Shown: positions 1 through 16,602 of the stretch, piece after piece | Position numbering within the stretch: position 1 is the stretch's first letter | Layout: every line of letters begins with the position of its first letter | IMG/VR virus record: IMGVR_UViG_2648501130_000005 | Coordinates: 1-17,970 of that record | Length of the DNA: 17,970 nucleotides | Source: a virus | Lineage: Duplodnaviria; Heunggongvirae; Uroviricota; Caudoviricetes | Direction: 5' to 3' (one strand) | Program-made: the position numbers and the translations under genes | Notes under the pieces: generated by a model | Told to the model about the DNA's origin: nothing | Seen by the model: only the letters and a program-made list of their open reading frames with translations | Database searches by the model: none

Positions 1-2073
1 AGTTGCTAACAGTCTTGTATGGAGAATTCCACTAGATGTGTATGTATTGGTCGAATCACTATATCTATCAAGAAATAGACTGTTAAGTTGAGGGCTGTTG
101 TTCCTACCTAAGCCAAGATTCGTTCTGGCACCATCAACAGTTGCCGCATTAGTGCCTCCTTGTCCAATAGGTAATGGAACCCATGACGATCCGTTATGGC
201 AACCCCACAATCCAGATGTTGACACCTGAAGTCGTGGCGCTGATGGTGAGTAATTCGAATAAACGTAAGTAGTCGATTCGCCTTCTTCAATTCTTTCTGT
301 TAATACTATTTTTTTCCATACACTCCAACCTTGTGTGCTGGTATATATCCTTCTATAAAGAATTGATGAATTGTTATATACAAAATAGCTCTGGATACAA
401 CCATCACTACCATTAGCACCAGTTCTTTGCACTAACAATGCACCAGCAAGCTGTATCGGGTAATTTAGTTCTGGCTTTGCGTTGGCAGACATTGGTTGGT
501 AATAAAAACCGGCTGTAGTACCTTTTATATCGTTTAAGTTCGTATTCGCATCAAGGCCAGTTTTTGCTTCAAACATGACTTCAAGTTTAGAGCGCGCTGT
601 ACTTGCATCATTCGCCCCTGTGCCACCTTGCGCAACTGCGAGCGGTTGCCATCTACCAGCTTTAGGGTTAAATGCGCCCCACTGACCGTCAGCATCAACC
701 TGTAAGTAACAGCCGTCCGCCTGAACGTCAGTAGATAAAATGATGGTTCTTGTGTCGCTTGAACGCTGAAATCGGATAACCTCATCTTTTCTTGCGTGGC
801 GTGTCCATTGCGGGCCTATTGTCGGATTCCAGCGATAAGTATAAAGCGAGCGCGTAGCCCATCCCTGAAATACACCTGTATACGCTGGTGTTCCATCTAC
901 CTGACTAATAAACCCCGTAAGACTGCTTTCACCGGATGCAATCGATGGAAATCCTTTTGCATTACTCATAATGCGCATAAATCCGATATACCCTGATGGG
1001 TTGCCGGAAATATCAGGACAATCACGCGGGGCTGAGCCAAGACCGATATTATCGCCAACAATTAATTGCGCCTGGTTGCGATAATTAAGTGCGTCCGCCG
1101 CAGATTTCGCCGCGTTTGTTTCACTGGATTTAGCATTAGTTTCGCTGGCTTTAGCGTTTGTTTCGCTGCTCTTTGCTGCTGCCTCGCTATTTTTCGCGTT
1201 GGTTTCTGATTTTTTGGCTGCTGTCGCGGAGTTTGCCGATGCAGTTTGTGAGTCTGCTGCCGCCTGTGCGCTGTTACCCGCAATATAAAGGCGTCCGTCC
1301 TGCATCTGCTGCAGCTTCACTGCCCACATGCTGTTCAGGTTATTATTTGTATCAACCTGAACCTTCTGTATCTGCTGGATCGCTGCACTCTGGTCTTCCA
1401 GTTTCTTATTGACGGTCTGTGTTATTTCATTGCTGACATCCGTTATGGACGTCCTGATTTCAGTCAGGTCAGGCGCAAGCTGACCGTTATCAATCTGCGT
1501 CCACAGCTCCTGAGCCAGATGGGTTTTCCCTATCCGGATATTAAACGGGCGCGGCGGCAGGTTATCCACCACCACCGAGGCCAGATACTGCGAGGTGGTT
1601 TTGCCCTTAATGGTGATGTCTTTTTCCGTCACCCAGCCACCATTACGCTGTATCTGAACCAGCAGGCGAACTTCCGACGGATTCCGGTCCCCCTTTGAGG
1701 TGGTTTCCACCAGTGCCTGCACGCCGAAGGTAAAGCGCAGACGGTCGATGTTTGCAGACGTAATGGTGCGGGTGATCGGCGTGTCATATTTCACTTCCGT
1801 ACCCAGCACCGTCTCGGAGCCGGAGGATTCAAACCCCTCCGGCGGTGTCTGCTCCTGCTCACCGGCACGGAACACCACCGTGACACCGGAGATGTTGGTA
1901 TTCCCCTCAGTGTCCAGCACCGGCGTACTGTTCAGCAGCACGCTTTTTAATCCATCCACCGGACCTTCAACCGGCCCTTCGCTGATGGCATCGATCACAC
2001 TCAGCAGCTGCGTGGACTTCAGGTTGTCCTTCGCTTCGCGCGGGGTATGCCCCTTACTGCTGCCTTTACCCAT
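1..2073 (-). CDS. Tail tip / side tail fibre chimeric protein, 3'-partial (runs past window start): lambda J-like N-terminus (~186 aa) followed by fibre-type repeats
   Basis: ATG at 2073-2071, preceded by GGAG/GAGGA. I checked all 691 in-frame triplets down to position 1 and found no stop; it is missing from the ORF track only because no stop lies inside the window. N-terminus MGKGSSKGHTPREAKDNLKSTQLL... matches my recollection of lambda gpJ. Later SETNAK-type repeats and two QGGTGA/QGGTNA...AR.NLGL motifs are typical of enterobacterial side tail fibres. Confidence 0.8.
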   Translation of the reverse strand, partial: MGKGSSKGHTPREAKDNLKSTQLLSVIDAISEGPVEGPVDGLKSVLLNSTPVLDTEGNTNISGVTVVFRAGEQEQTPPEGFESSGSETVLGTEVKYDTPITRTITSANIDRLRFTFGVQALVETTSKGDRNPSEVRLLVQIQRNGGWVTEKDITIKGKTTSQYLASVVVDNLPPRPFNIRIGKTHLAQELWTQIDNGQLAPDLTEIRTSITDVSNEITQTVNKKLEDQSAAIQQIQKVQVDTNNNLNSMWAVKLQQMQDGRLYIAGNSAQAAADSQTASANSATAAKKSETNAKNSEAAAKSSETNAKASETNAKSSETNAAKSAADALNYRNQAQLIVGDNIGLGSAPRDCPDISGNPSGYIGFMRIMSNAKGFPSIASGESSLTGFISQVDGTPAYTGVFQGWATRSLYTYRWNPTIGPQWTRHARKDEVIRFQRSSDTRTIILSTDVQADGCYLQVDADGQWGAFNPKAGRWQPLAVAQGGTGANDASTARSKLEVMFEAKTGLDANTNLNDIKGTTAGFYYQPMSANAKPELNYPIQLAGALLVQRTGANGSDGCIQSYFVYNNSSILYRRIYTSTQGWSVWKKIVLTERIEEGESTTYVYSNYSPSAPRLQVSTSGLWGCHNGSSWVPLPIGQGGTNAATVDGARTNLGLGRNNSPQLNSLFLDRYSDSTNTYTSSGILHTRLLAT

Positions 2074-2095
2074 TCCTCACGCTCCATAAATGACA

Positions 2096-2115
2096 AAACC
2101 GCCCGCAGGCGGTTT
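2096..2115 (-). terminator. Hairpin between the I-like stop and J-like start (perfect 8-bp stem, 4-nt loop, T-rich tail on minus strand)
   Basis: AAACCGCC cgca GGCGGTTT; on the minus strand the stem is followed by TTTTGTCATTT. Same intergenic arrangement as I recall for lambda I-J; may be an attenuator or stability element rather than a full terminator. Confidence 0.4.
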
Positions 2116-2133
2116 CACATAAAACATTTTGCA

Positions 2134-3060
2134 TCAGCGACCAATCACCACAACCTGACCACCGTCCCCTTCGTCTGCCGTGCTGATCTCCTGAGAAACC
2201 ACGCGAGACCCCACGCGCATTTCCCCGTACAGAACAGGCAGAACATTGCCCTGGGCAACCATGTTATCCAGTGAGGAGAAATAGGTGTTCTGCTTACCGT
2301 TATCCGTTGTCTGTGTACGGGGAGTTCTGGCTTTCGGTGCCAGCATCTGCGCCACACCACCGAGCACCATACTGGCACCGAGAGAAAACAGGATGCCGGT
2401 CATACCACCGGTCCCAATGGCTGCCCCCCATGCTGCAAGGGTGGCTCCGGCGGTAAAGAATGATCCGGCAATGGCGGCAGCCCCCAGGACAATCTGGAAT
2501 ACGCCACCTGACTTGGCCCCGGCGACTCTGGGAACAATATGAATCACAGCGCCATCAGGCAGAGTCTCATGTAACTGCGCCGTTAATATGTGCTGTTTGA
2601 GTTGACTTTCTTTTGCCGCATAGCCGTCACTTTTGCCGCGATATGGCCCCTGGTAATGTTCAGCAAACAGAACGCGTTCTGTTGCGGGAAAATATGCGCG
2701 CAGACTTTCTTTATTACACCCGTTCCATCGTCCGGACGGCTTCGCCCAGATAATATGGTTAAGAACGTTGAAACGTTCACGCATCATGATCTCGATATCA
2801 GATGCGAGGCGATGTCCACAGAACAGGTAAAGGCTTCCGGCAGGTTTCAGCACCCGCCAGAACTGAGCCAGACAGTGGTCCAGCCACTTCAGGTAATCTT
2901 CGTCCCCTTTCCACTGATTGTCCCAGCCGTTGGGTTTCACCTTGAAGTACGGCGGATCGGTAACAATCAGGTCAATGGAATCATCAGGCAGGGACTGAAT
3001 AAAATGCAGGCAATCAGCGTTGATTAAATCAACACTGTTTATTTTTACAGTATTTTTCAT
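2134..3060 (-). CDS. Chimeric ORF: N-terminal ~165 aa of a beta-class DNA methyltransferase (DPPY motif, no AdoMet-binding motif) fused in frame to the C-terminal ~140 aa of tail assembly protein I
   Basis: N-terminus has DLIVTDPPYF (motif IV) but no FxGxG motif follows. From about residue 166 the sequence (TAQLHETLPDGAVIHIVPRVAGAKSGG ... GGQVVVIGR) matches my recollection of the lambda gpI C-terminus. Junction at about nt 2582/2583. Probably a non-functional fusion. Confidence 0.65.
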   Translation of the reverse strand: MKNTVKINSVDLINADCLHFIQSLPDDSIDLIVTDPPYFKVKPNGWDNQWKGDEDYLKWLDHCLAQFWRVLKPAGSLYLFCGHRLASDIEIMMRERFNVLNHIIWAKPSGRWNGCNKESLRAYFPATERVLFAEHYQGPYRGKSDGYAAKESQLKQHILTAQLHETLPDGAVIHIVPRVAGAKSGGVFQIVLGAAAIAGSFFTAGATLAAWGAAIGTGGMTGILFSLGASMVLGGVAQMLAPKARTPRTQTTDNGKQNTYFSSLDNMVAQGNVLPVLYGEMRVGSRVVSQEISTADEGDGGQVVVIGR

Positions 3061-3209
3061 GGATCAGTAAGCGTAACTCTGGTAGGCTCACTCTGCTTTT
3101 GCGCTAAAGCAGTGGGCCGTGGTTCGCTTGTGACCAGTAAGCATGAGCGAATGGCTGGCAGGTGCTACCAACACCCACCAGCCGCCCATTTTCACAAATT
3201 AAAAGCCCT

Positions 3210-3404
3210 TCATTGCTGAAGGCGTCTGTAACAGCCGAACTGGTAATCTGCCAGCCCCGCCATAACCAACTGGGTCAGTATTAACTGACAGCGTTCGCGT
3301 GAAAGGTATGTGTTTTGTGCAATCTCCCCGACTGTTGCCGGTTCGATGCTTAATTCATTAAAAACAACTTTCGCCGTTTCTGTCATATCTTGCTGTTTTA
3401 GCAT
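3210..3404 (-). CDS. Small putative winged-helix DNA-binding protein (64 aa), function unknown
   Basis: 64-codon ORF with AAGGT 11 nt upstream of the ATG; the central segment ATVGEIAQNTYLSRERCQLILTQLVMAGL looks like a helix-turn-helix. Divergent from the KAP NTPase gene. Start could instead be the internal Met at 3386. Confidence 0.45.
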   Translation of the reverse strand: MLKQQDMTETAKVVFNELSIEPATVGEIAQNTYLSRERCQLILTQLVMAGLADYQFGCYRRLQQ

Positions 3405-3527
3405 GTCTTTTTACCTTCATGGTTAACATGACATACCAATAACTCTTGTCTAAAAAGCCAGCAAGATAAAAAATCAGTATTCACTACCACCAGCGTGTTT
3501 ACCGTACTGCACCAGGTTTACAGGTAC

Positions 3528-3553
3528 AAAAAAACCCGCTCGACAGCGGGTTT
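3528..3553 (-). terminator. Intrinsic terminator on minus strand (8-bp perfect stem, 5-nt loop, U-run)
   Basis: Plus strand reads AAAAAAA-CCCGCT-cgaca-GCGGGTTT, so the minus-strand RNA has the stem followed by a run of U. No annotated minus-strand gene lies immediately upstream. Confidence 0.5.
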
Positions 3554-3676
3554 AAGCTGTGTGGCGAAGTAACCACTCTTAACAGATTACAAGAATTTTT
3601 GCGGACCGCGTTAATGATTTTTAATCCCAAAGTCGTATTATTCGTTTTTTACTGTAGGAGTTAATAGGTTTATATT

Positions 3677-5008
3677 ATGTTAGATACACTATCTTTCACT
3701 GAACGTGACGAGTTCCAACGAAGAAACATCGCTGAAAATATCATCAAGTTGCTAAAACCAGAGGCAGACATTTCACCACTGGTAATAGACGGCGCATGGG
3801 GAACAGGGAAAACAGAATTTAGTATCAAACTGAAAAATCTCATTATTGAGCAAGAAACTGAATCTAAAGTTGTTTATATTGATGCCTTTAAAGGGGATCA
3901 TGCAGAATCTCCATTACTTCTCATAACCTCTGCAATTGCCAGCATTTTGCCTGAGGAAGAAAAACAACACTTCATTAAGAGATCTCTTCCTGCAATTCGC
4001 TTTGGTTTAAAAACGGTACTAAAAGCTGGTGCAGGTTGGTTTTTACGACAGGAGGCTAGTGAAGTTGCCGAAGAATTCCAAGATGCGATGAAGAAAGCAA
4101 GCAATGCAGCAATAGATGGGACTATTGAAAATTTGCTTGAAGACCATATGGACTCAGAGAAAAACATAAATTCACTTAAATCCTGCATCGAAAGCATATC
4201 AAAAAATCAAAAAATCGTAATTATAATTGATGAATTAGACCGATGTAAGCCGAGTTTTTCAACAAATGTCATTGAAACAATAAAACACATTTTTGACATC
4301 AATAATGTCTTTTTTATTTTAGTTACAAACACAGAACAATTAAAAGCATCTATAAATCATATTTATGGTTATAGCATTAACTCACAAAAGTATCTTGACA
4401 AGTTTATAAAATATACCATCACGCTTCCAGATACATGTTTGATAAATGGTCACAACGTATGTAAAGCCTCTGTTATATATTGGGATTACCTTGTAGAAAA
4501 AACAAGGTTATTGAATAAAATCAATAGATTATCAGGTTACTTTATCCGTGATTTAATTCAACGAACCAACTTATCATTACGTGAAACACAAACATTTTCA
4601 CGCAATCTTAACATTTTCCAACTGTTAAACGACGATGAGAACAAAAGCAGTGATCCTTTAATAAATATGATCTTTGTCGTAGCTGCCTTCATACATTGCT
4701 TTGGTAACAAGGAAAAACTAAAACAAGAAATTACCGCTGAATCTATATCTTATTTAGCAGACCTGCTTAACATAAAAGAAATACCTTATTCTTATGAGAG
4801 AAGATCGCAAATCCCTGAAATATCGATTGTATTCTTCGGAATAATTAAAGACAGTATTACTCTTAATGAGCGATTTGCCCCTAAAAGTGATGAAGAACTT
4901 AAAAAATTCACAAATGTTTATACTGATTATGAACACATAAATTTTTGGAGTACTACACCCAGAGAGTTATTGATAAAATATATTAATCAAATGTCATTCA
5001 TCCAGTAA
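3677..5008 (+). CDS. KAP-family P-loop NTPase (443 aa)
   Basis: Walker A DGAWGTGKT and the KAP-typical Walker B region IVIIIDELDRCKP. Visibly AT-rich with long A/T runs compared with flanking genes. Ends at the hairpin at 5011-5035. Confidence 0.85.
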   Translation: MLDTLSFTERDEFQRRNIAENIIKLLKPEADISPLVIDGAWGTGKTEFSIKLKNLIIEQETESKVVYIDAFKGDHAESPLLLITSAIASILPEEEKQHFIKRSLPAIRFGLKTVLKAGAGWFLRQEASEVAEEFQDAMKKASNAAIDGTIENLLEDHMDSEKNINSLKSCIESISKNQKIVIIIDELDRCKPSFSTNVIETIKHIFDINNVFFILVTNTEQLKASINHIYGYSINSQKYLDKFIKYTITLPDTCLINGHNVCKASVIYWDYLVEKTRLLNKINRLSGYFIRDLIQRTNLSLRETQTFSRNLNIFQLLNDDENKSSDPLINMIFVVAAFIHCFGNKEKLKQEITAESISYLADLLNIKEIPYSYERRSQIPEISIVFFGIIKDSITLNERFAPKSDEELKKFTNVYTDYEHINFWSTTPRELLIKYINQMSFIQ

Positions 5009-5010
5009 AT

Positions 5011-5035
5011 AATACGCCCCATGCAGGGGCGTATT
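5011..5035. terminator. Bidirectional intrinsic terminator between convergent KAP NTPase and Q genes
   Basis: Perfect 10-bp inverted repeat AATACGCCCC / GGGGCGTATT with loop ATGCA, sitting exactly between the KAP stop (5008) and the Q stop (5037), with A/T-rich flanks on both sides. Confidence 0.6.
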
Positions 5036-5036
5036 A

Positions 5037-5402
5037 TTAAACGTCCAAATCTAATGTTAGATCTAGCATGGAAAGGCAGCCATCAATAAATCCTTCGGCT
5101 AGCTGTATTTCTATACGTATCAATTTCTCATCTTTTTTACGAGCCTTGGCGAGCTTTCTTTTAGAGATACCGTATAGGTAATGGGCAACAAGAAGCGAAT
5201 GTTCGTCCGGCCTTTTTTGCTTTAGATGAGCAAGACAACCTTCAATAATTAAGGCATCACTATCCGAACAAGCCAAGCGTTTCTTGCTTGTATAGGGAAG
5301 AAGTCCCTTAAACCCAGCGGCTATAGGTGAATAATCAACGCCTGAACTATCACTCGCCGCCCATGCCCCCCAACGCTCCAGAACCATCTGAATATCACGC
5401 AT
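5037..5402 (-). CDS. Antitermination protein Q (QuuD-like lambdoid late-gene antiterminator)
   Basis: N-terminus MRDIQMVLERWGAWAA... is the signature I recall for E. coli prophage Q/QuuD proteins. ATG at 5402 with GGTGGAGA upstream; the track's first residue is a TTG one codon earlier. Confidence 0.8.
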   Translation of the reverse strand: MRDIQMVLERWGAWAASDSSGVDYSPIAAGFKGLLPYTSKKRLACSDSDALIIEGCLAHLKQKRPDEHSLLVAHYLYGISKRKLAKARKKDEKLIRIEIQLAEGFIDGCLSMLDLTLDLDV

Positions 5403-5419
5403 CAACTTTCTCCACCAAA

Positions 5420-6415
5420 TCAGGCTAGCACACCAATTGCCAACACACGGTCGATAAAACGAAATATCAGCTCCAGCTGGGAGCCATACTTCTCTTCAAA
5501 TGCCACGGTATCCGCATGCAGCTCGTCGTGATGCTTTCTGCACAAAGGCAACACAAAGAGGTCATGCGCTTTTGTACTCATTCCCCCCTGACCGTGGCCT
5601 ATCAGGTGGTGGGGATCATCAGCAGGCTTTCCACAACATGCACACGGCTGTGTCTTAACCCAGCGCGTGTACTTTTCATTAACCCAGCGGCGACGTTTGG
5701 GGCGTAACATAAAAGACTCCGGCGACTCCGGTTCCACTTTCAGCGCCAGCACCTTTTTCGCTTTATCCTGCATGATGCTGGTGGCTGGAACCGAAGGCAC
5801 AAGGTCACTTTCCCGGGTGACAGACGGCACAACAGGCTTCGGTAATCTCAGTGCCTTACGGGCTGCGCTTTCCGGTAAGGCATCCGCCAGATCATTACGA
5901 ACCAGCCACCAGCACAGTTCCGGCATTGTCACAACGTGACTATCATCAAAACCGAGATCCCGACGCACAACAGACAACACCCAGCGGGCACAGTTATCCG
6001 TTGCCATTGATTCCAGCCGTTCCGTGAACTGATCGCGCAGTTGGTTATCGCAGTGCCAGCACAGACGGATTGCGCCAGGCGCGTGTCGCATTGTGGTCAT
6101 GTTCTCGCTGTGCCAGTTGGAATGAGGCCACTGGCAGCCTTTTTCACGAAGTAACCAGCTTTCAAGACATTCCACGCCACCAGCACGACGGATCACTGCC
6201 TCATTGCGGAACACGGCCCGAACGGCAGGATCATCCGCCAGCGGTTGTGATGCCGCCGGAACGGCACCACTGGCGAAAGATGAATAACGTTCCGGCTCAG
6301 GCTCCAGCAGTACACGCCCCTGCATAAACAGGGGCATCAACTCTGAACCTGGCCTGAACAATACGATCCCCATACGCGGGGCAATTTCAGGGGTCAGTAG
6401 TGCTCTCACGGTCAC
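5420..6415 (-). CDS. DUF968-like nin-region protein with C-terminal HNH-like Cys/His motif
   Basis: C-terminal CACCGKPADDPHHLIGHGQGG...LCRKHHDELH; placed between KilA-N and Q as in lambdoid nin regions. Start uncertain: GTG at 6415 or 6409, or ATG at 6373; none has a clean SD. Confidence 0.6.
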   Translation of the reverse strand: MTVRALLTPEIAPRMGIVLFRPGSELMPLFMQGRVLLEPEPERYSSFASGAVPAASQPLADDPAVRAVFRNEAVIRRAGGVECLESWLLREKGCQWPHSNWHSENMTTMRHAPGAIRLCWHCDNQLRDQFTERLESMATDNCARWVLSVVRRDLGFDDSHVVTMPELCWWLVRNDLADALPESAARKALRLPKPVVPSVTRESDLVPSVPATSIMQDKAKKVLALKVEPESPESFMLRPKRRRWVNEKYTRWVKTQPCACCGKPADDPHHLIGHGQGGMSTKAHDLFVLPLCRKHHDELHADTVAFEEKYGSQLELIFRFIDRVLAIGVLA

Positions 6416-6416
6416 C

Positions 6417-7226
6417 TCAATGAACGGTATCGAGCAGCTTTAACAGCTCAGGGAATCGGGATTCGAAGAAATGCGGCTGCGTCTCGCGCGGATTTGCAGG
6501 ACTGGTGATGTTCTTGCCGAACATGCAGCCTTTCGCCGTCAGCGACCAGAATTTTTTGATGTTGTTAATCGCTGTACGGCTGTATCGTTCGCGCTGTTCG
6601 ACGATCCCCAGCTTCGCCATCTGGTGATATGCCTGATTAGCCGTAAGGCGGATACCATACTGTTTCAGCAGTGCACTCAGCGACAGTGTCGGGCGACTTG
6701 AGCCATCAGGCGCGTCAGCAGGAGCATCAATGGCATAGCGCGGTGCCAGATTCGGTAAGCCAACAGCCTCCTGGAGTTTCTGACAGGCCCCAAGCACTGA
6801 AGAGTTAGACAGGTTTAACTCCCTGCGCATAAAGTCCAGCAGAATCACGCCAGCCTGCATCTTGTCAGCAGCCTGCCCGGATAATTTTTCCGGTGCGCTG
6901 GTTACCATATCGAAAGTACGGATCACCTTCAGATGGAATGACGGGCTGATCCACATTGCATAGGCATACACCAGTTCTTTGCAGACATACGTCCCCTGGT
7001 TATTTCCGCCATTAATGACGCTAACTGGTTGATTTTGTTCCAGAGGCGGAATTCCACCCTCGGTGAAAAGTTGTTCAATCAATTCACAGGTTTGCTTATT
7101 GGAGAGCCAGTATTTCGGGCGGTTTTTTTGTTCTCCCCCGGCTGCCCTGTGCAGATCGTTCAGGCTGTAACGCCCATAAGCATCACGACGAACTTCAATA
7201 CCATCAATGACCATCAGATTATTCAT
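6417..7226 (-). CDS. KilA-N domain protein
   Basis: N-terminal MVIDGIEVRRDAYGRYSLNDLHRAAGG...YVCKELVYAYAMWISPSFHLKVIR is KilA-N-like. ATG at 7226 with AGGAGA 9 nt upstream; the track's GTG at 7259 was rejected. Confidence 0.7.
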   Translation of the reverse strand: MNNLMVIDGIEVRRDAYGRYSLNDLHRAAGGEQKNRPKYWLSNKQTCELIEQLFTEGGIPPLEQNQPVSVINGGNNQGTYVCKELVYAYAMWISPSFHLKVIRTFDMVTSAPEKLSGQAADKMQAGVILLDFMRRELNLSNSSVLGACQKLQEAVGLPNLAPRYAIDAPADAPDGSSRPTLSLSALLKQYGIRLTANQAYHQMAKLGIVEQRERYSRTAINNIKKFWSLTAKGCMFGKNITSPANPRETQPHFFESRFPELLKLLDTVH

Positions 7227-7245
7227 ACTTCGTTTCTCCTCTTGA

Positions 7246-7635
7246 TCAGGCGGCTGCACCCGCCGTTTTCTCGTACTTACTGATAGTGATCTCGACCTTC
7301 CCTTCCGGGATAACCGGTCCCCACTCCACCAGCATTCTTTTCACCTGGCTGTCGTCTTCCCACACACCCGCGTGGGTCAGGGCGTCAAACAGCGCCTTGT
7401 TATAGTTGTCCAGATCGCGGATCCGGTTATCCGGAGGAAACAACACGATCTCCACTGAAGCAGGTGCCGACGTTGGTTTCGGCAGACGACGTAACTGCTC
7501 AACTATTGCTGTGCACGCCGCACTTTGGAATTTTCGCCCCGCCGCGCTTATCAGGCTCTTACCAGCAAATGCCCCTTTGTTGGGGTGTCGCCAGTAGGTG
7601 TTCACGCTGGGTGGAAAAGGCAGAATCAGCTTCAT
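7246..7635 (-). CDS. rusA: Holliday junction resolvase RusA
   Basis: LPFPPSVNTYWRH ... RDLDNYNKALFDALTHAGVWEDDSQV matches the RusA family signature. Start ATG overlaps the upstream stop (ATGA). Confidence 0.85.
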   Translation of the reverse strand: MKLILPFPPSVNTYWRHPNKGAFAGKSLISAAGRKFQSAACTAIVEQLRRLPKPTSAPASVEIVLFPPDNRIRDLDNYNKALFDALTHAGVWEDDSQVKRMLVEWGPVIPEGKVEITISKYEKTAGAAA

Positions 7636-7958
7636 ACTTTCAGCCCCCTCTCATGTAACCAGTGGGCTGCACGCAGCCTTGCGTTTTCCTCACCGGCAAG
7701 CAGTGAGCGGATAATCCCGACCGCCTCGCTGTCGTCGTCCTTCACCGCGGTATGAAGCGTGATCCCCCGGGCCACACCACGCTTTATCGTGATGACGCCT
7801 TTTTTCTCCAGTGCGCGAAGATGCTCCACCGCTGCATTCACCGAACGGTATCCCAGCATGGTTGCCACCTCCTGATTGGTTGGCGGGAAGCCGCGTTCTT
7901 TCTGATAAGAAATCAGCATATCCAGCACCTGCTGCTGGCATTGAGTTAACGTCGTCAT
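7632..7958 (-). CDS. LexA N-terminal DNA-binding-domain-like protein (no peptidase domain)
   Basis: LTQCQQQVLDMLISYQKERGFPPTNQEVATMLGYRSVNAAVEHLRALEKKGVITIKRGVARGITL aligns closely with the LexA N-terminal winged helix as I recall it (…RSPNAAEEHLKALARKGVIEI…). Only 108 aa, so no S24 cleavage domain. ATGA overlaps at both ends. Confidence 0.75.
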   Translation of the reverse strand: MTTLTQCQQQVLDMLISYQKERGFPPTNQEVATMLGYRSVNAAVEHLRALEKKGVITIKRGVARGITLHTAVKDDDSEAVGIIRSLLAGEENARLRAAHWLHERGLKV

Positions 7959-8608
7959 GCCGCCATCTCCCTGACCAGTTTTTCTGCCTGCTGGCGAATC
8001 TGCGCCAGAAAGGCCTCACCACATGCCTCAAGTTCATCGCGCCCGATGTAGCTGATTGCCGGTCCCTTCCAGGTCTTGTCGAAAACAGCAATAGCACCAG
8101 CGAAGAAAGCGCCTGTCGGCACCTGCTTCTCATCCTTCGGGATAAACCAGGCAGGCAGTTCAAAACCAATACGCCCGCGAATAAAAGCAATATGATCTAC
8201 ATCTTCCGGCCACCACACTTCGCTGGTGGCAGCTTTGATCAGGAAAACATAGCGCCCGCCTTTATCACGCATGGCACTGGCATGCTTCATGATGTAACGC
8301 ATGCCGGTGATGTATTGCCCCTCATGCTGACTGGCGCGGCTGTATGGGGGATTACCAAAGGCAGCACCTTTAAGCTCCGCAAGGCGTTCTGACCAGTCAT
8401 GCGCCAGCGCGTTGTCTTCCGCCGTGTAATACGCAGCACATTTGGCGTTATCACCGTCAGTGAACAGATCCAGAACAAACGGGCCAAACAGGGTGTTAAT
8501 TCCCCAGAAAATGTTGTCCGGCGTGCGCCACTGATCGCCCACTTCCTTCAGTTCATGGGCTGGTTTGTTCCGCAGTTCCACCAGCGCCTGGCAATATTTA
8601 TTACTCAT
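7955..8608 (-). CDS. Phage N6-adenine DNA methyltransferase (Dam-type)
   Basis: GNPPYS (NPPY catalytic motif). ATG at 8608 with GTGGGGG upstream, overlapping the upstream TAA (TAATG). The track's GTG extension to 8641 was rejected. Confidence 0.75.
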   Translation of the reverse strand: MSNKYCQALVELRNKPAHELKEVGDQWRTPDNIFWGINTLFGPFVLDLFTDGDNAKCAAYYTAEDNALAHDWSERLAELKGAAFGNPPYSRASQHEGQYITGMRYIMKHASAMRDKGGRYVFLIKAATSEVWWPEDVDHIAFIRGRIGFELPAWFIPKDEKQVPTGAFFAGAIAVFDKTWKGPAISYIGRDELEACGEAFLAQIRQQAEKLVREMAA

Positions 8609-9096
8609 TAAGCCCCCACGTAATTCCCTGAGAGATACCACTCTTCACCTGATGCAGCCCGCTTACTGCTTTTCCGTAAACACCGTTCACGACGCGCCAA
8701 AAAATTGTTTCGTTCTGGCAGGGAGTGGCTTTCACGGAATGCCGCCATCCACACCGTTGCAGCACGACGGTATAAGCCCCTGGACTCCAGTTCTTCCGCC
8801 TGGCGGGTCAGGCACAAAATCACCCGCGGGTCGTTAGTGCCGACATAGAAATTGCGCACAGGTCTGGTTTCACGAACTGGTTGTGGTTCCGGATCCTGCG
8901 CTCTCTCAGTCAGGCGCGGGAAATGTCTGTGTGTATCTCCTTCACAACGGTGAGCCACACGCCCACTCTGACGTAACTTGCTTGCTGACTGCAGAACGCG
9001 CTGCCGTGAGTAACCTGCAAAAGCATCCGCAATGTCTCCGGAAGTACAGCCCGGATGGGCTTCAATGAATTTCTGAACGTCATTCAAAAGACTCAT
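8608..9096 (-). CDS. Putative transcriptional regulator with PerC-like C-terminal region
   Basis: AEELESRGLYRRAATVWMAAF resembles the PerC/Pch core motif (LESAGFWRRAAARW type). ATG at 9096 with GGGGGTGA upstream, 2 nt after the replication gene stop. Confidence 0.55.
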   Translation of the reverse strand: MSLLNDVQKFIEAHPGCTSGDIADAFAGYSRQRVLQSASKLRQSGRVAHRCEGDTHRHFPRLTERAQDPEPQPVRETRPVRNFYVGTNDPRVILCLTRQAEELESRGLYRRAATVWMAAFRESHSLPERNNFLARRERCLRKSSKRAASGEEWYLSGNYVGA

Positions 9097-9098
9097 GC

Positions 9099-9869
9099 TC
9101 ACCCCCTGAATCCTGCCGGGATCTGGCTGTAGTCCACATTGTCGTAACTGGCTTTGAAGTACGGGTCTTCGCGTTTTTCTGTGTACGTGCTGACGGACGG
9201 CGATAAGCGCAGGGAAAGCTCATCCCATTTTTCCCGCAGCTTCGACGGGCTGAGCACGTTACGGCACCAGAACGGATCGCGGCTGACGCGGCTGTACATC
9301 TCGCAGATTTGTTTGTGAGTACGACCATCCTGCACACACATCAGGCGAATTTCGTTTGCCCAGGCTGTCCAGTTCGGTTCTTTGGGACGAACCACCTCGC
9401 CGTCACATTCGGCAGCCTGCTCGTACAGGGCGATGATTTTTTTCCAGAGCCACTGTGCGCAGGTCAAATCATCCTGCGTCCCCCACTGGCGCTTTTTAGG
9501 GCTGAATACAACCGCATCAGGATGGCGAGTTAAAAAATCCTGTTCATCCGTCTGCGTGTCCGGTTGCGAAGCGTCCGGACGAGAAGGTTTTTTATCTGAC
9601 GGATCATGTTTTGATTTTACTGACGGATCCCCGCCAGATTCTGACGGGTGAAAACCCGCTTTTTTGCCAGATTTCGACGCATCAAATTTTGACGGGTCAG
9701 ATTTTGATGCGTCAGATTTTGACGGGTCAGAATCTGACAGTTGAGAAAATGCCGCTGCCTGAAGCTTCGCAACGTTAAGCTGATAAACATTCGACGCATT
9801 GCGGTTACCCACGGTTAGCCTCATCGTTCTGTGGTTTCTGTTAATCGATTTATCCATTAGATTTTTCAT
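9099..9869 (-). CDS. Replication initiation protein (lambda O-like role) with internal iteron-encoded peptide repeats
   Basis: Sits directly downstream of cro. The central SDSDPSKSDASKSDPSKFDASKSG region is encoded by tandem DNA repeats. Start uncertain: ATG at 9869, 9857 or 9824; the track's first codon at 9926 is GTG and lies deep inside cro. Confidence 0.6.
   Translation of the reverse strand: MKNLMDKSINRNHRTMRLTVGNRNASNVYQLNVAKLQAAAFSQLSDSDPSKSDASKSDPSKFDASKSGKKAGFHPSESGGDPSVKSKHDPSDKKPSRPDASQPDTQTDEQDFLTRHPDAVVFSPKKRQWGTQDDLTCAQWLWKKIIALYEQAAECDGEVVRPKEPNWTAWANEIRLMCVQDGRTHKQICEMYSRVSRDPFWCRNVLSPSKLREKWDELSLRLSPSVSTYTEKREDPYFKASYDNVDYSQIPAGFRG
9590..9740. repeat. Iteron array (putative origin of replication) inside the replication initiator gene
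   Basis: At least seven tandem ~15-17 bp copies of a (C)AGATTTTGACGGGTCA-like unit, e.g. attttgacgggtcag / attttgatgcgtcag / attttgacgggtcag. Analogous to the lambda ori iterons inside gene O. Confidence 0.6.
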
Positions 9870-10050
9870 AAAGCTCAGGTTTAAATGGCAACCGTCCGCA
9901 AGTTCTATATGCAGCTTCTGCTGCACGTCCTTTTGGAATTAACTGGCCCGGACGGTTTCGCCACTGATAAACGGCTTCAGTTGTTATGCCGAAAAAAGCA
10001 GCAACTTTCTCAATACTGCCGAAGTAGCTTTCGATATCGTCAGTTGTCAT
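9850..10050 (-). CDS. Cro-like transcriptional regulator
   Basis: 66 aa, divergent from the repressor gene; KVAAFFGITTEAVYQWR is a Cro/YdaS-type helix-turn-helix. Confidence 0.7.
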   Translation of the reverse strand: MTTDDIESYFGSIEKVAAFFGITTEAVYQWRNRPGQLIPKGRAAEAAYRTCGRLPFKPELYEKSNG

Positions 10051-10147
10051 ACGCCCTCCAAACTAAGTTTTATTAGATGCTAATTACAAATCTATCTTTG
10101 GTCAATAAAAACTAAGATTACTTAGCAATTAAAGAAATGGTGCTCCT
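10051..10147. promoter_or_regulatory. Divergent promoter/operator region between cro-like and cI-like genes
   Basis: 97-bp AT-rich intergenic region with two 14-bp palindromes: CTAAGattaCTTAG (10112-10125, perfect) and CTAAGttttATTAG (10063-10076, one mismatch). Minus strand carries TTGACC and a possible -10. Confidence 0.55.
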
Positions 10148-10774
10148 ATGGAAACGGTTGGTCAGCGTATAAAAGCTCTGAGAAGAGTTACCAGAACGTC
10201 CCAGAAAGAATTGGGTAAATTTTGTGGAGTAAGCGACGTTGCTGTGGGGTACTGGGAGAAAGACATCAATACCCCTGGTGGGGAGGCACTTTCGAAATTA
10301 GCGAAGTTCTTCAATACGTCAATAGATTACATTCTTTATGGTGCTGAGTTTGAAGGCAAACTCGTCACAAACATGCGCAGAGTTCCTGTAATATCGTGGG
10401 TTCAGGCTGGGCAGTTTACTGAGTGCAGGGCAGCAGAAGTGTTTAGTGAAGTGGACAAGTGGGTAGATACATCATTAAAGGTTGGTGATAACTCATTTGC
10501 ATTAGAGGTTAAAGGTGACTCCATGACTAACCCTAATGGCCTCCCAACAATACCAGAAGGCGCAACAGTGATTGTAGATCCAGATGCAGAACCTCGTCAT
10601 GGAAAAATAGTCATCGCTCGACTTGATGGAACAAACGAAGCTACAGTAAAAAAATTAGTCATCGATGGCCCTCAAAAGTTTTTAGTACCATTAAATCCTC
10701 GGTATCCCAACATCCCTATCAATGGTAATTGCCTTATCATTGGTGTAGTCAAAGGAGTTCAATACGAACTCTAA
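10148..10774 (+). CDS. CI-like prophage repressor (HTH plus S24 LexA-type autopeptidase domain)
   Basis: N-terminal XRE-type HTH (QKELGKFCGVSDVAVGYWE); C-terminal GDSM and a downstream Lys (VKKLV) typical of S24 self-cleaving repressors. SD-like sequence before the ATG. Confidence 0.85.
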   Translation: METVGQRIKALRRVTRTSQKELGKFCGVSDVAVGYWEKDINTPGGEALSKLAKFFNTSIDYILYGAEFEGKLVTNMRRVPVISWVQAGQFTECRAAEVFSEVDKWVDTSLKVGDNSFALEVKGDSMTNPNGLPTIPEGATVIVDPDAEPRHGKIVIARLDGTNEATVKKLVIDGPQKFLVPLNPRYPNIPINGNCLIIGVVKGVQYEL

Positions 10775-10927
10775 GGCCTCTCTTCTCTAACTAAGGCACC
10801 GAACTAAGAAAAGTTTGGTGTTTTCTCTTGCCATGACAACTAAGTTAAGTTAGATTTTATATCAAAGATAACGAACAGGCAGGACGCCCACGAAGTAGCC
10901 GCCTGGGGCATATGAAGTCCAGGATGA

Positions 10928-10952
10928 TTCGTTAGCAACAAAAAAGCGCCCT
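10928..10952 (-). terminator. Intrinsic terminator on minus strand downstream of the 173-aa gene
   Basis: On the minus-strand RNA: 7-bp stem AGCGUCC / GGGCGCU (one G-U pair), loop UGUA, then UUUUUUGUU. The G-U pair forms only on the minus-strand transcript. Confidence 0.5.
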
Positions 10953-11004
10953 ACAGGACGCTTAGCTCTTTAACAATCTGGGTATCATCCAACCAATGCA
11001 AGAT

Positions 11005-11526
11005 TTAAGGAATCCAAGGCGAATTCAGATCTCGCCCCAACTCACGTAATGATCTTGGTCGTTCGTACATCGGATTTTTTTCCATAAGAAATTTATTTTC
11101 ACAGTGAAGGCAACGGCTTGTAAGAAAATGAGAAGTTTTACCTACTGGAAGCGGATGAAGTATCGATTTTATATTTTTGGAATAACAAAGTGGGCACAGA
11201 TGCACAGTTATTTCTTTTCCACTCACAATTTCATTTTTAGAGTAAACAAAAGCACCAGAGTCAAGCTGATCAAGGACATATCCTTCTACCTTGGCACAAA
11301 AATCTTCAAACTCTGCAATTTTTGCTTTGAGATGCATCACCTCTTCATCACGAAGGCGGATCGCATCGCCAAGAGAGAAGCATTCTGCCTGAAGCGTGAT
11401 TAGTTTGTTCTGGAGTTCAATGGTTGCAGCTTTAACTTCTGCATCCGTTTTCGCGTCATTAATAACCTTAGCAAGACCGGCAGTCTCCTTTATAGCGGCC
11501 ATAGCCGCAGACAGTTCAGCTATCAC
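11005..11526 (-). CDS. Hypothetical coiled-coil / zinc-ribbon protein (moron convergent with cI)
   Basis: 173-codon ORF; N-terminal half is Ala/Lys/Glu-rich helical, C-terminal part has CPLC ... CLHC. C-terminal half is visibly AT-rich. Start is GTG at 11526 or ATG at 11502; neither has a strong SD. Confidence 0.6.
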   Translation of the reverse strand: MIAELSAAMAAIKETAGLAKVINDAKTDAEVKAATIELQNKLITLQAECFSLGDAIRLRDEEVMHLKAKIAEFEDFCAKVEGYVLDQLDSGAFVYSKNEIVSGKEITVHLCPLCYSKNIKSILHPLPVGKTSHFLTSRCLHCENKFLMEKNPMYERPRSLRELGRDLNSPWIP

Positions 11527-11542
11527 GTTGAATACTCAGCTA

Positions 11543-11586
11543 GTTGTTGGGGATATCCAGATTAACCAAATCCTTGTTGTTGGGGA
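11543..11586. repeat. Two exact 11-bp direct repeats GTTGTTGGGGA, 33 bp apart, just upstream of the 173-aa gene
   Basis: Seen directly at 11543-11553 and 11576-11586; function unknown. Confidence 0.5.
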
Positions 11587-11848
11587 ATAACTAGGTCCAC
11601 CTCGCCTGATGTGGCTAAAAGCAGGCACATAACAGCTAAGTATTTTCAACCAGAGAGAATCCTTAGCGTTGTGGTGAATGCGGCTCAGCGCACGCGGGTT
11701 AAGGTTGAGGCTGACAGTCGACCTTCTGTGGATACCCACCCGCCTGGTGTGCAACCTTCGCCAGGCACCGGGAGGCACCCGGCACCACAACTTTATGCTG
11801 TGTGTAGTCCTCGCGGTACCAGTTTGTACACTTGCTTCCGGCTGGTAC

Positions 11849-11947
11849 CGCTCTTTTTACAAAACAGAGAAGAACATCACCGGACGACGGGCTCATAACC
11901 CAATCCATCCGGGCGGCTGCCACCGCAGGTGTTCTTCTCTGTTTTGT
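11849..11947 (+). promoter_or_regulatory. boxA-like motif followed by an 18-bp perfect inverted repeat enclosing 53 nt (nut-like site or structured leader)
   Basis: CGCTCTTTTTAC (11849-11860) resembles boxA. Arms ACAAAACAGAGAAGAACA (11859-11876) and TGTTCTTCTCTGTTTTGT (11930-11947) are exact reverse complements. Lies 49 nt upstream of the yfdP-like ATG. Confidence 0.45.
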
Positions 11948-11995
11948 GGAGAAACCAACCGACCTTGCAGGGTCGATATGATTAGGAGCAGAAAA

Positions 11996-12358
11996 ATGGC
12001 TAGCGAACGCAGTACTGATGTGCAGGCATTTATTGGGGAGCTGGACGGCGGCGTATTTGAAACCAAAATCGGCGCAGTTCTCAGTGAAGTCGCTTCCGGT
12101 GTGATGAACACGAAAACCAAAGGTAAGGTCTCACTCAACCTGGAAATCGAACCATTTGATGAGAACCGTGTGAAAATCAAACACAAACTCTCATATGTTC
12201 GCCCGACTAACCGCGGGAAAATTTCCGAAGAAGACACCACCGAAACGCCGATGTATGTCAATCGCGGTGGTCGCCTGACTATTCTGCAGGAAGACCAGGG
12301 ACAATTACTGACTCTTGCCGGTGAACCTGACGGAAAACTCCGCGCAGCAGGTCATTAA
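11996..12358 (+). CDS. yfdP: YfdP-like early-left protein (120 aa)
   Basis: ATG at 11996 with AGGAG 7 nt upstream; the track ORF from 11678 is an unsupported upstream extension. Length and position match the yfdP-yfdQ-yfdR order I recall from CPS-53. Confidence 0.55.
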   Translation: MASERSTDVQAFIGELDGGVFETKIGAVLSEVASGVMNTKTKGKVSLNLEIEPFDENRVKIKHKLSYVRPTNRGKISEEDTTETPMYVNRGGRLTILQEDQGQLLTLAGEPDGKLRAAGH

Positions 12359-12423
12359 TATCGTTCTTAATTAACCGATTATTTATCTCATCACTGAATA
12401 TCTTTATATAGTGAGGACTTATT

Positions 12424-13248
12424 ATGTCTCAGAACTTAGACGCAACCGCAATTAATCAAATCCATGCCCTTATTTCTGCTCAGGGTGTTAATGAAATTAT
12501 CAGTAAGATTGGTGCCGATGCTGTGGCATTGCCTGAGAATTTCCGCATTCATGATCTGGAAAAATTTAATTTAAATCGCTTCCGTTTCCGTGGTGCGCTT
12601 TCCACTGCCAGCATCGATGACTTTACCCGTTACTCTAAAGATCTTGCAGATGAAGGCACCCGCTGCTTTATCGATGCCGATAATATGCGAGCCGTCAGTG
12701 TGCTTAACCTGGGTACTATTGATGAACCAGGTCACGCAGATAACACCGCCACACTCAAACTGAAAAAGACAGCACCGTTCTCTGCTCTGTTGTCTATTAA
12801 CGGCGAGCGTAACTCCCAGAAGTCACTAGCAGAATGGATTGAAGACTGGGCAGACTATCTTGTGGGCTTTGATGCTAATGGTGACGCTATTCAGGCAACA
12901 AAAGCGGCTGCGGCTGTCCGTAAAATCACGATTGAAGCAAACCAGACCGCTGATTTTGAAGATAATGACTTCAGCGGCAAACGCTCCCTGATGGAGTCTG
13001 TCGAAGCGAAGACCAAAGATATTATGCCTGTGGCATTTGAATTTAAATGCGTTCCGTTTGAAGGCCTGAAAGAACGTCCGTTTAAATTACGCCTCAGCAT
13101 TATCACTGGCGATCGTCCTGTACTGGTTCTGCGCATTATTCAGCTGGAAGCAGTGCAGGAAGAAATGGCTAACGAATTTCGTGATCTGCTTGTTGAGAAA
13201 TTCAAGGACAGCAAAGTAGAAACCTTTATTGGTACTTTCACCGCCTGA
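12424..13248 (+). CDS. yfdQ: YfdQ-like protein (DUF2303 family, 274 aa)
   Basis: GAGGA 6 nt upstream of the ATG. Length and N-terminus [14 protein letters not shown]... match my recollection of K-12 YfdQ. Confidence 0.7.
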
Positions 13249-13260
13249 TTTCATTACTGC

Positions 13261-13282
13261 AAATGCCCCTGCGGGGGCATTT
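13261..13282 (+). terminator. Hairpin downstream of yfdQ-like gene (possible partial terminator or attenuator)
   Basis: AAATGCCCC tgcg GGGGCATTT: perfect 9-bp stem, but only a short T-run follows. Confidence 0.4.
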
Positions 13283-13375
13283 ATGGAAACGTAATTGACT
13301 CAATAATCGCCGGATGGTGAGGGCTTCCTTTTACCAGAATTCAGCGCGGTGCAGCGCATATACGTGGAGAACAAA

Positions 13376-13912
13376 ATGTCATTTATTAAAACTTTTTCCG
13401 GGAAGCATTTTTATTATGACAGGATAAATAAAGACGACATCGTTATTAACGATATCGCGGTTTCTCTTTCAAATATCTGTCGCTTTGCAGGGCATCTTTC
13501 ACATTTCTACAGCGTTGCCCAACATGCGGTGCTTTGCAGCCAACTGGTACCGCAGGAATTTGCTTTTGAAGCGTTAATGCATGATGCAACAGAAGCGTAT
13601 TGCCAGGACATCCCGGCGCCACTGAAACGCCTTCTTCCTGACTATAAACGGATGGAAGAAAAAATAGATGCAGTAATCCGTGAGAAATACGAGTTGCCCC
13701 CGGTTATGAGCACGCCCGTGAAATATGCCGATCTCATCATGCTGGCAACCGAACGCCGTGATCTCGGGCTTGATGATGGCTCTTTATGGCCTGTACTGGA
13801 AGGTATCCCGGCAACAGAGATGTTCAAAGTTATTCCACTGGCACCGGGCCATGCCTACGGGATGTTTATGGAACGCTTCAACGAGTTATCGGAATTACGC
13901 AAATGTGCATAA
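13376..13912 (+). CDS. yfdR: HD-domain phosphohydrolase (YfdR-like, 178 aa)
   Basis: H...HD motif (AQHAV ... LMHDATEAY). ATG at 13376 with GGAGA upstream; the track's GTG at 13349 was rejected. Its 3' end overlaps the next gene by 10 nt. Confidence 0.8.
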   Translation: MSFIKTFSGKHFYYDRINKDDIVINDIAVSLSNICRFAGHLSHFYSVAQHAVLCSQLVPQEFAFEALMHDATEAYCQDIPAPLKRLLPDYKRMEEKIDAVIREKYELPPVMSTPVKYADLIMLATERRDLGLDDGSLWPVLEGIPATEMFKVIPLAPGHAYGMFMERFNELSELRKCA

Positions 13913-14781
13913 CTCATGTAGTTAGTTTTTCTGGCGGGAGAACATCCGCATATCTTGTTCACCTGATGGAAGAACAAAGAAAGGCTGGCAATAACGTCTG
14001 CTACATCTTTATGGATACCGGTTGCGAACATCCGCTGACATACCGCTTTATCCGGGAGGTTGTGAAGTTCTGGGACATACCACTAACTGTGTTACAGGTC
14101 GATATAAATCCTGAGCTTGGGCAGCCAAATGGTTATACAGAATGGGAGCCAAAGGATATTCAGACACGAATGCCGGTGCTTAAACCGTTTATGGACATGG
14201 TTAAAAAGTACGGCACGCCATACATCGGCGGCGCGCTCTGTACTGATAGGCTAAAACTCATCCCTTTCACAAAATACTGCGATAACCATTTCGGGCGAGG
14301 TAATTACATCACATGGCTGGGTATTCGTGCAGACGAACCCCGTAGGCTGAAACCGAAATCGGGCGTCCGGTATCTTGCCGAGCTGTCAGATTTTGATAAG
14401 TCGGATGTTATCCGGTGGTGGCGAAAACAACCTTTTGATTTGCAAATCCCGGAGCATCTCGGGAACTGTGTTTTCTGCATCAAAAAGTCAACGCAAAAGC
14501 TGGGGCTTGCATGTAAAGACGAACCAGGTCTGATGCGAGTTTTTAATGAGCTGGTTACAGGCAAACACGTCAGGGATGGTCATCGCAGAACAGGTAAAGA
14601 CATTATGTACCGTGGTCACCTGACGCTTGACGGAATTGCCAGAATGTCTGCCAACAGCGACTACAGAAATTTGTATCAGGCGATGGTACAGGCCAGGCGA
14701 TTCGATACCGGCTCGTGTTCAGAGTCATGTGAAATCTGGGGTGATCAATTGGAATTGGAATTCAAAGAGGTAGGGGTATGA
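13903..14781 (+). CDS. PAPS-reductase-like PP-loop ATP pyrophosphatase family protein with C-terminal Cys cluster
   Basis: PP-loop VVSFSGGRTSAYL near the N-terminus; Cys pairs (CVFC, CSESC) near the C-terminus. ATG at 13903 overlaps the HD gene stop; the track's 13786 start is an upstream in-frame extension inside the HD gene. Confidence 0.8.
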   Translation: MCITHVVSFSGGRTSAYLVHLMEEQRKAGNNVCYIFMDTGCEHPLTYRFIREVVKFWDIPLTVLQVDINPELGQPNGYTEWEPKDIQTRMPVLKPFMDMVKKYGTPYIGGALCTDRLKLIPFTKYCDNHFGRGNYITWLGIRADEPRRLKPKSGVRYLAELSDFDKSDVIRWWRKQPFDLQIPEHLGNCVFCIKKSTQKLGLACKDEPGLMRVFNELVTGKHVRDGHRRTGKDIMYRGHLTLDGIARMSANSDYRNLYQAMVQARRFDTGSCSESCEIWGDQLELEFKEVGV

Positions 14782-16512: not shown

Positions 16513-16526
16513 CTTATTGATTTAAA

Positions 16527-16602
16527 TGGTGCCGATAATAGGAGTCGAACCTACGACCTTCGCATTACGAATGCGCTGCTCTACCAACTGAGCTATATCG
16601 GC
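16527..16602 (-). tRNA. thrW: tRNA-Thr (anticodon CGU)
   Basis: Reverse complement reads GCCGATATAGCTCAGTTGGTAGAGCAGCGCATTCGTAATGCGAAGGTCGTAGGTTCGACTCCTATTATCGGCACCA: 7-bp acceptor stem, GTTCGA T-loop, anticodon loop with CGT, encoded CCA. Confidence 0.9.

Follow-up and report, generated by a model that had tools for sequence, protein, structure and literature searches.

Two in-frame deletions as the probable origin of a J::side-tail-fibre chimera in a defective lambdoid prophage of Escherichia coli

INTRODUCTION

How does a single open reading frame (ORF) come to begin as the tail tip protein J of a lambdoid phage and to continue as a side-tail fibre (Stf)? This question is raised by a 17,970-nt stretch of caudoviral DNA (IMG/VR record IMGVR_UViG_2648501130_000005, positions 1 to 17,970; hereafter, the window), in which such an ORF occupies the first 2073 positions on the minus strand. 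An initial annotation, made from the sequence alone, had interpreted the ORF as a J::Stf chimera produced by internal rearrangement, and we agree with this view, as three segments with intact parents elsewhere are joined in it. That annotation had also called such fibre modules substrates for host-range recombination, as is general knowledge. We further propose, with a probability of roughly 0.88, that the ORF is a relic of prophage decay, in which two in-frame microhomology deletions fused J 1–180, J 822–907 and Stf 285–1253.

RESULTS

An ORF composed of three segments and two junctions

The ORF begins with an ATG at window position 2073 and is open without a stop codon to position 1 (691 codons), where it runs off the window; an ORF search of the plus strand over positions 1–2100 yielded no long ORF. 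The complete ORF was obtained from three complete E. coli genomes, in which it extends approximately 1.6 kb past the window, through an S74 chaperone domain to a stop codon, and encodes 1235 aa. Across the ORF region, E. coli 2-101 shows 100% identity to the window, and E. coli YD786 has a single base difference. Upstream of the ATG, the native J ribosome-binding site GAGG (approximately 2078–2081) and the lambda I–J intergenic stem-loop are kept. The features are listed in Table 1; coordinates were taken along the reverse complement of window 1–2200, on which a coordinate q corresponds to window position 2201 – q.

Table 1. Segments and junctions of the fusion ORF, and its upstream neighbour
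Feature	Position in window	Strand	Content	Basis
Segment 1	1535..2073	(-)	J start codon and codons 1–180; N-terminal part and truncated FNIII-A	Identity to J
Junction 1	1532..1534	(-)	GAT microhomology; J codon 180/181 to J codon 821/822	Alignment of parent and product sequences
Segment 2	1275..1531	(-)	J codons 822–907 (fusion codons 181–266); linker/coiled stretch	Identity to J
Junction 2	1275..1282	(-)	Imperfect 8-nt microhomology TGCGG(G/A)TA; J codon 907/908 to Stf codon 284/285	Comparison with J (L003) and intact Stf (L006)
Segment 3	1..1274	(-)	Side-tail-fibre body from N285 of an intact 1253-aa Stf (P0007)	DNA identity
Methyltransferase'::'I fusion	2134..3060	(-)	308-aa in-frame ORF, upstream neighbour	ORF list, translation and comparison with Bongo

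The product of segment 1 is identical to lambda J at 177 of 180 residues and to the J protein of phage phiSTEC1575-Stx2k at 179 of 180, and its DNA is 97.3% identical to lambda 15378–16046 and 99.3% identical to phiSTEC1575-Stx2k. The Pfam domain FNIII-A_GpJ was detected at residues 86–184, and chain J of PDB 8iyk was matched over residues 1–206. Segment 2 is also a piece of J: the 260 nt from window 1534 to 1275 are 100% identical to the J genes of phiSTEC1575-Stx2k, several Stx2a phages, Kati and 569R4, and the encoded stretch is identical to residues 822–907 of phiSTEC1575-Stx2k J (86/86 aa). It reaches 36 residues into the Phage_Tail_Tip domain, the start of which is MWAVKLQQMQDGRLYIAG. 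PF09327 was found at residues 231–281, below threshold, and PDB 8xcj, a C-terminal fragment of lambda J, matches fusion residues 182–269.

The initial annotation had extended the J match to about 186 residues, set the divergence at nt 1500–1520 and assigned the coiled region after the break to the fibre. A J N-terminus is indeed present, but it covers 180 residues and breaks at window 1534–1532; a coiled stretch does follow, but residues 181–266 are those of J 822–907. Instead of the single breakpoint assumed, there are two junctions, J180/J822 and J907/Stf285, the latter at 1282–1275.

The DNA of segment 3 is 99–100% identical to the Stf genes of strains 442/2, WCHEC020031 and many other E. 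coli genomes. Fusion residues 265–825 are 99% identical to residues 281–841 of the 442/2 Stf, and the fusion is collinear with the 1253-aa Stf from N285. The Ala/Ser-rich SETNA-type repeats and QGGT(G/N)A...AR motifs that had been noticed earlier were found where described, with positions determined by translation: SETNA occurs four times at residues 289–321 (window 1209–1111), overlapped by a 21-nt tandem repeat at 1118–1168; QGGTGA at residues 482–487 (630–613) is followed by ARSKLEV (597–577), and QGGTNA at residues 638–643 (162–145) by ARTNLGL (129–109). When the fusion was compared with lambda itself, DNA matches were limited to segment 1 and a tfa remnant; the repeat region showed 35–44% amino acid identity to lambda orf-401, and no match to lambda orf-314 was found. 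Since each of the three segments is 99–100% identical in DNA to intact genes elsewhere, the chimera is not a product of chance.

Junction 1 reads CCGGAT/AGGGAAAACC, where the slash marks the join, and its parents read ..CCGGAT/GCGCAGG and ..GCGAGAT/AGGGAAAACC, with GAT common to both. The alignment offsets correspond to a 1923-nt (641-codon) in-frame deletion inside J. Junction 2 reads TTGCGGGTA/ACAGCGCAC, and its parents are ..TTGCGGGTA/TCGG in J and ..ATGCGGATA/ACAGC in Stf. Measured against the J-lom-stf region of strain 442/2, the second deletion comprises 2337 nt (779 codons), is likewise in frame, and took the 3' end of J, lom and the 5' end of Stf. Both deletion sizes are multiples of three.

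Domains lost from the fusion protein

The fusion keeps a truncated FNIII-A domain (PF24801; residues 86–184, 96.8 bits, cut at profile position 102 of 126), 36 residues of Phage_Tail_Tip, the Stf shaft and distal part, and Peptidase_S74 (PF13884; residues 1092–1143 of the full ORF, outside the window; 51.1 bits, cut-off 22). In the domain search, the hub domain Phage-tail_3 (PF13550; 330–498 in intact J) and both immunoglobulin (Ig) domains (Ig_J and Ig_J_second; 610–714 and 716–818 in intact J) were absent from the fusion, as was the C-terminal receptor-binding domain Ig_GpJ_C (PF12421; 1029–1164 in intact J). Most of PF09327 (Phage_Tail_Tip) is also gone, and the earlier statement that most of the J body is missing is borne out by these losses. 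Against the NCBIfam model lambda_TipJ (NF049904; cut-off, 1950 bits), the fusion scored 449.7 bits, through profile positions 1–181 and a second short stretch, compared with 2330.7 bits for the intact phiSTEC1575 J.

On the fibre side, no match to phage_tail_N (PF08400), the Stf collar/attachment domain located at residues 1–134 of the intact 442/2 Stf, was found in the fusion. The Stf of Ur-lambda is anchored by residues 1–94, which form a collar on gpV/gpM (PMC12617516). Because the collar residues are deleted, the fusion cannot be mounted on a tail. The hub, Ig and receptor-binding domains are gone together with the Stf collar, and the tape-measure, tube, head and lysis genes are gone from the prophage (see below); the product can therefore serve neither as a tail tip nor as a mounted side fibre, and we infer from its sequence that it has lost its virion function, as had been supposed for the tail tip. 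If made, the protein would most likely be transcribed from the remaining late operon and could at most form a free fibre-like trimer. The annotation pipeline PGAP calls the fusion an intact 'TipJ family phage tail tip protein', and this name is misleading, as the product cannot be a tail tip.

A defective prophage at thrW

The host element is a defective lambdoid prophage at thrW, a tRNA-Thr gene. We read its status from the annotated contexts of strains YD786, 2-101, EC98 and WCHEC020031, in comparison with strain Bongo, which carries an intact relative with a complete late region. The gene order is proA, tRNA-Thr, integrase, early genes, cI/cro, a replication module, RusA and Q, followed by a KAP NTPase gene on the opposite strand, the methyltransferase'::'I fusion, the J fusion ORF and a 135-nt tfa remnant. 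The integrase beside the tRNA site and the immunity and Q regions are kept, and no lysis, head, tail-shaft/tail-tube or tape-measure genes were found in these contexts, as is characteristic of a defective lambdoid prophage.

The upstream neighbour of the J fusion combines the N-terminus of a DNA methyltransferase with the C-terminal two-thirds of the tail assembly protein I. Relative to the intact Bongo prophage, the join at window 2587/2586 reflects a deletion of 17,883 nt, without microhomology, which took the lysis, head and most tail genes.

The interval from the KAP NTPase gene to the remnant late genes contains, on the minus strand, a promoter-like TTAACT-16-AATAAT (window 3664–3637), followed after approximately 85 nt by a strong terminator-like hairpin with a T run (3553–3532). 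By its sequence, this layout resembles the PR'/tR' pair of lambdoid late operons, and Q-dependent late transcription of the relic is conceivable. The KAP family NTPase gene (window 3677–5008, plus strand) lies between Q and this late promoter region, opposite in direction to the remnant late genes; in ACN002-type prophages, the same slot is occupied by a 339-aa gene of unknown kind. Directly downstream of the fibre and the tfa remnant, on the opposite strand and approximately 1.9 kb past the window start, is a GIY-YIG gene (L002 27846–28619), which matches the PADLOC defence model PD-T4-3 over the full length (E = 7.6e-140).

In the replication module, the 1.1 kb of window 8667–9804 carry the gene of an O-like replication protein, in which SDPSK/SDASK peptides are repeated, together with a PerC-like gene. 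YD786 has unrelated sequence in this place (ymfL, DUF4222 and an HTH gene), with both flanks 100% identical, and both boundaries of this swap are at ...GTAA. As the window differs from YD786 in this segment, the complete genomes searched do not include the exact strain it came from.

Distribution and decay series

We searched 5426 complete E. coli genomes for an 80-mer spanning each junction. Each 80-mer was present in three genomes, and the carriers of both junctions were YD786, 2-101 and EC98, all at thrW. A contiguous J or Stf ortholog lacking a breakpoint had been named as the observation that would speak against a chimera. This check did not refute the chimera: contiguous copies of the fusion occurred only in these three genomes, all of them in the same thrW prophage. 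Among 50,697 phage records, the fusion was not found as a contiguous unit, the best coverage being 41%. Undeleted parental flanks were observed in 122 of 122 J genes and 49 of 52 Stf genes of viral contigs. By exact-sequence look-up, the identical fusion protein is represented by 19 E. coli UniRef100 entries.

The three sister strains have both junctions in common and differ in their upstream deletions. YD786, like the window, carries methyltransferase'::'I upstream of the J fusion, 2-101 carries HTH'::L, and EC98 carries DUF4222' joined to J codon 57, a form also found in 10 contigs by exact-sequence look-up. In 14 further genomes (WCHEC020031-type), no J sequence is left, and HTH' is joined to the fibre at the very nucleotide of junction 2, via GGGTAA; this HTH'::Stf form is present in 171 contigs of the protein collection. 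J reads GGGTAT and Stf reads GGATAA at this position. Because GGGTAA exists in the J::Stf chimera only, descent of the HTH'::Stf form from the J fusion appears to be the simplest reading of these sequences. The J fusion strains and the HTH'::Stf genomes are a decay series of one prophage.

Comparison with known systems

We compared the fusion with lambda gpJ (PDB 8IYK, 8XCJ), lambdoid Stf proteins and fibre genes of cryptic prophages. Residues 1–180 are 98% identical to lambda gpJ, with native upstream signals, and residues 181–266, a J-family stretch, show a distant match to approximately lambda J 790–879. Unlike J, however, the fusion lacks 641 internal codons and the last 258 codons (908–1165 of phiSTEC1575 J), and with them the hub, the Ig domains and the LamB-binding C-terminal domain, and it fails the lambda_TipJ cut-off. 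From residue 267 onward, it is collinear with and 99% identical to E. coli prophage Stf proteins (compared with the Ur-lambda Stf, the 1253-aa Stf and the 442/2 Stf), including the SETNA coiled-coil repeats, the distal modules and the tfa remnant after the gene, as in intact loci, but Stf residues 1–284, including the gpV/gpM-anchoring collar PF08400, are missing.

The full ORF ends in Peptidase_S74, as do the S74 chaperone fibres of the endosialidase type (PF13884), and self-cleavage and trimerisation of its product are putative; close relatives are named 'pyocin knob domain-containing S74 family peptidase' by PGAP. As a chimeric fibre remnant in a defective prophage, the fusion is also similar to the cryptic-prophage fibre genes of E. 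coli (stfR, stfQ and stfE/stfP of K-12; StfE2 of e14). StfE2 is a reversible product of the Pin invertase acting at pix sites (PMC12529663), whereas the joins of the fusion are irreversible deletions at sites unlike pix, with no paired inverted repeat at the breakpoint.

Reading frames and reuse of breakpoints

We examined the reading frames of gene::gene joints in this lineage and elsewhere. The joints of the thrW lineage were the three in the window (Table 1) and those in L001 (17880–18749), L005 (8771–11914) and L007 (6938–10543). Elsewhere, the J211::Stf joint of strain MS20649, the essD'::J joint of strain 2 HS-C, L::Stf, TAGT'::Stf and one other were out of frame, and the J::S74 joint of 2 HS-C and two terminase::Stf joints were in frame. 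In total, 9 of the 14 joints examined were in frame (binomial P approximately 0.017).

We next considered the endpoints in Stf. At the Stf position TA/ACAGCGCACAGG, five unrelated left partners were found in different prophages: J at junction 2 of this prophage; HTH', seen in L163 and in genomes of the WCHEC type; a TET-associated glycosyltransferase, truncated, which belongs to a Rac-like prophage of L142 and strain AR_0369; the stop codon of the 339-aa gene, in L166, ACN002 and six other genomes, whose DLP12-site prophage has its late region in inverted orientation with respect to the fibre; and an internal position of IS3 (L234). Every one of these partners ends in TA. Other Stf endpoints lie at nt 190, 328, 422 and 773, each seen with one left partner, and approximately 20 nt downstream of the reused position is an endpoint common to J211 (MS20649) and Lom' (P0010). 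The reciprocal product, in which the Stf N-terminus is kept and the distal part is lost, was absent from 60 viral-contig loci. A metagenome scan for further left partners was swamped by a second canonical Stf allele (GCAGCTA/ACAGCG) and contributed one new partner, IS3; a scan of genome contigs returned mostly chance 19-mer matches in GC-rich genomes.

Three other prophages carry related rearrangements. In a DLP12-site prophage of 2 HS-C and two other genomes (L008 5995–6010), the essD'::J deletion, an independent event, ends 1–3 nt from the right end of junction 1 (GAT/AGGGAAAACC), and the 2 HS-C locus also contains an in-frame join of J straight to the S74 chaperone domain. In E. coli MS20649, a prophage at dusA (L004 9001–12459) carries an independent, out-of-frame deletion joining J codon 211 to Stf; it retains just L-K-I and the fibre, with a reverse transcriptase/SLATT gene pair downstream. 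At the DLP12 site of E. coli ACN002 (L331 11586–23678), an inversion relative to the fibre covers the late region, methyltransferase through Nu1, and its reciprocal junction is lost; the tfa remnant there is closely followed downstream by an intact gene for a Pin-like serine recombinase, of which the thrW lineage has none.

Several specific causes of the junctions were considered and rejected. A Chi-anchored, RecBCD-limited deletion was dismissed, as neither GCTGGTGG nor CCACCAGC occurs in the 442/2 locus (J, lom and Stf); in the other loci, no Chi was found near a junction. For a crossover by a Pin/Gin-type invertase, we looked for a 26-bp pix/gix-type site, TTCTCCCAAACC..GGTTT with an inverted partner; the junctions are unlike the pix site quoted in PMC12529663, and the intact loci hold no inverted partner copy. 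Small stems flank both candidate sites (TGCG..CGCA at the Stf site), and their folding energies do not differ from those of shuffled sequences (z = –1.6 to –0.2), which disfavours hairpin-driven breakage. A mobile cassette with a fixed right end is contradicted by right boundaries that vary between loci, a relocated J remainder by the lack of J 3' end, lom or Stf 5' sequence elsewhere in the locus, and a general GG(G/A)TA junction motif by its absence from three other joints of the lineage. A hot spot at the right-hand J site was rejected for the viral contigs, in which all 122 J sites were intact; the one further case is the essD'::J deletion of three genomes. Integron core sites, dif/XerC arms and the end rules of IS608, IS5 and Tn7, compared by eye, gave no convincing match.

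DISCUSSION

We propose the following origin of the ORF. A lambda-like prophage at thrW would have started with the usual tail-end genes, L-K-I-J-lom-stf-tfa. One illegitimate short-homology deletion would have removed J codons 181–821, and a separate deletion of the same kind the 3' end of J, lom and the first 284 stf codons; both would have happened to stay in frame, leaving a single ORF of 1235 aa. Later deletions would have taken the lysis, head and tail-shaft genes, by way of methyltransferase'::'I in the window and YD786 and by other joints in the sister strains. We infer that the short-homology deletions arose by replication slippage or microhomology-mediated end joining. The ORF is a further example of a well-known kind, namely, the deletion-derived chimeric ORFs of cryptic prophages.

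Three observations weigh against this account. All six independent joints of the prophage lineage are in frame, for which the chance expectation is (1/3)^6 = 0.0014, unlike what neutral decay should leave. The ORF is also intact, and identical, in the 19 E. coli entries. Finally, reuse of the Stf breakpoint by unrelated deletions suggests a cause more specific than random slippage. These points restore no tail-tip function, yet they leave room for selection on the fibre part.

They could be accommodated if Stf TA/ACAGCGCACAGG, and perhaps also J GAT/AGGGAAAACC, were a specific break or recombination hot spot, with the distal fibre preferentially salvaged, and possibly expressed, during prophage decay. 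This interpretation is based on at least five independent left partners (in thrW, Rac-like, DLP12-site and other prophages, one of them involving an inversion) and on the excess of in-frame joints. We consider it unlikely.

It is also unlikely that the distal fibre has been domesticated to the benefit of the host, in-frame joins keeping it translated from a leftover promoter and the free fibre acting on the cell surface, where it might, for instance, mask a receptor and so block the adsorption of other phages. In favour of domestication are the in-frame excess, both in the lineage and among all joints examined, and the retention of the distal fibre at every stage of decay (3 J-fusion genomes and 14 HTH'::Stf genomes), with the reciprocal product never seen in the 60 loci. 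The gene is also situated downstream of the PR'/tR'-like promoter–terminator pair and beside the defence gene PD-T4-3. Moreover, there is a precedent for a virion-independent role in StfE2, a cryptic-prophage chimera that blocks T2 adsorption (PMC12529663). However, identity within the lineage is 100%, and so recent an origin deprives the intact ORF of any weight as evidence; out-of-frame joins to the same fibre also exist elsewhere (MS20649, L142, L137 and L158). In addition, PADLOC returned no match for the fusion (nor for gene X, which was submitted with it), and the N-terminal stubs vary (J, HTH and DUF4222), so that there is no consistent signal for export or anchoring. On this analysis, a virion-independent role of the retained fibre is conceivable but improbable.

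We attach very little credence to the idea that the ORF encodes a natural, functional mosaic tail-tip or host-range protein, or that it is an assembly artefact. The former could appeal to the PGAP call of an intact tip protein, but the J domains on which the hub and receptor binding depend are all missing from the fusion, which is confined to prophages that lack head and tail-tube genes and has no contiguous counterpart in the phage records. The latter is contradicted by the same sequence in three independently assembled complete genomes and in the 19 identical protein entries. A single-breakpoint chimera, with the J N-terminus joined straight onto the fibre, might be suggested by the predicted coil after the break, which weakly resembles Ala-rich repeats in lambda orf-401, but it is refuted by the 260-nt identity of window 1534–1275 to J codons 822–907 of many J genes and by the absence of this stretch from intact Stf genes.

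Decay by two short-homology deletions, our preferred explanation, documents the erosion of a prophage tail end at nucleotide resolution. It illustrates how such deletions yield long, intact-looking ORFs that are then mislabelled by annotation pipelines, and in the sister strains the stages of decay of one prophage can be seen in order, which is rare. If the reuse of breakpoints and the in-frame bias are real, they would indicate that side-tail-fibre genes contain a defined site that is fragile or recombinogenic, and that retention of the receptor-binding fibre module is selected for. This would bear on the ways in which cryptic prophages furnish incoming phages with host-range modules or shield their host from them.

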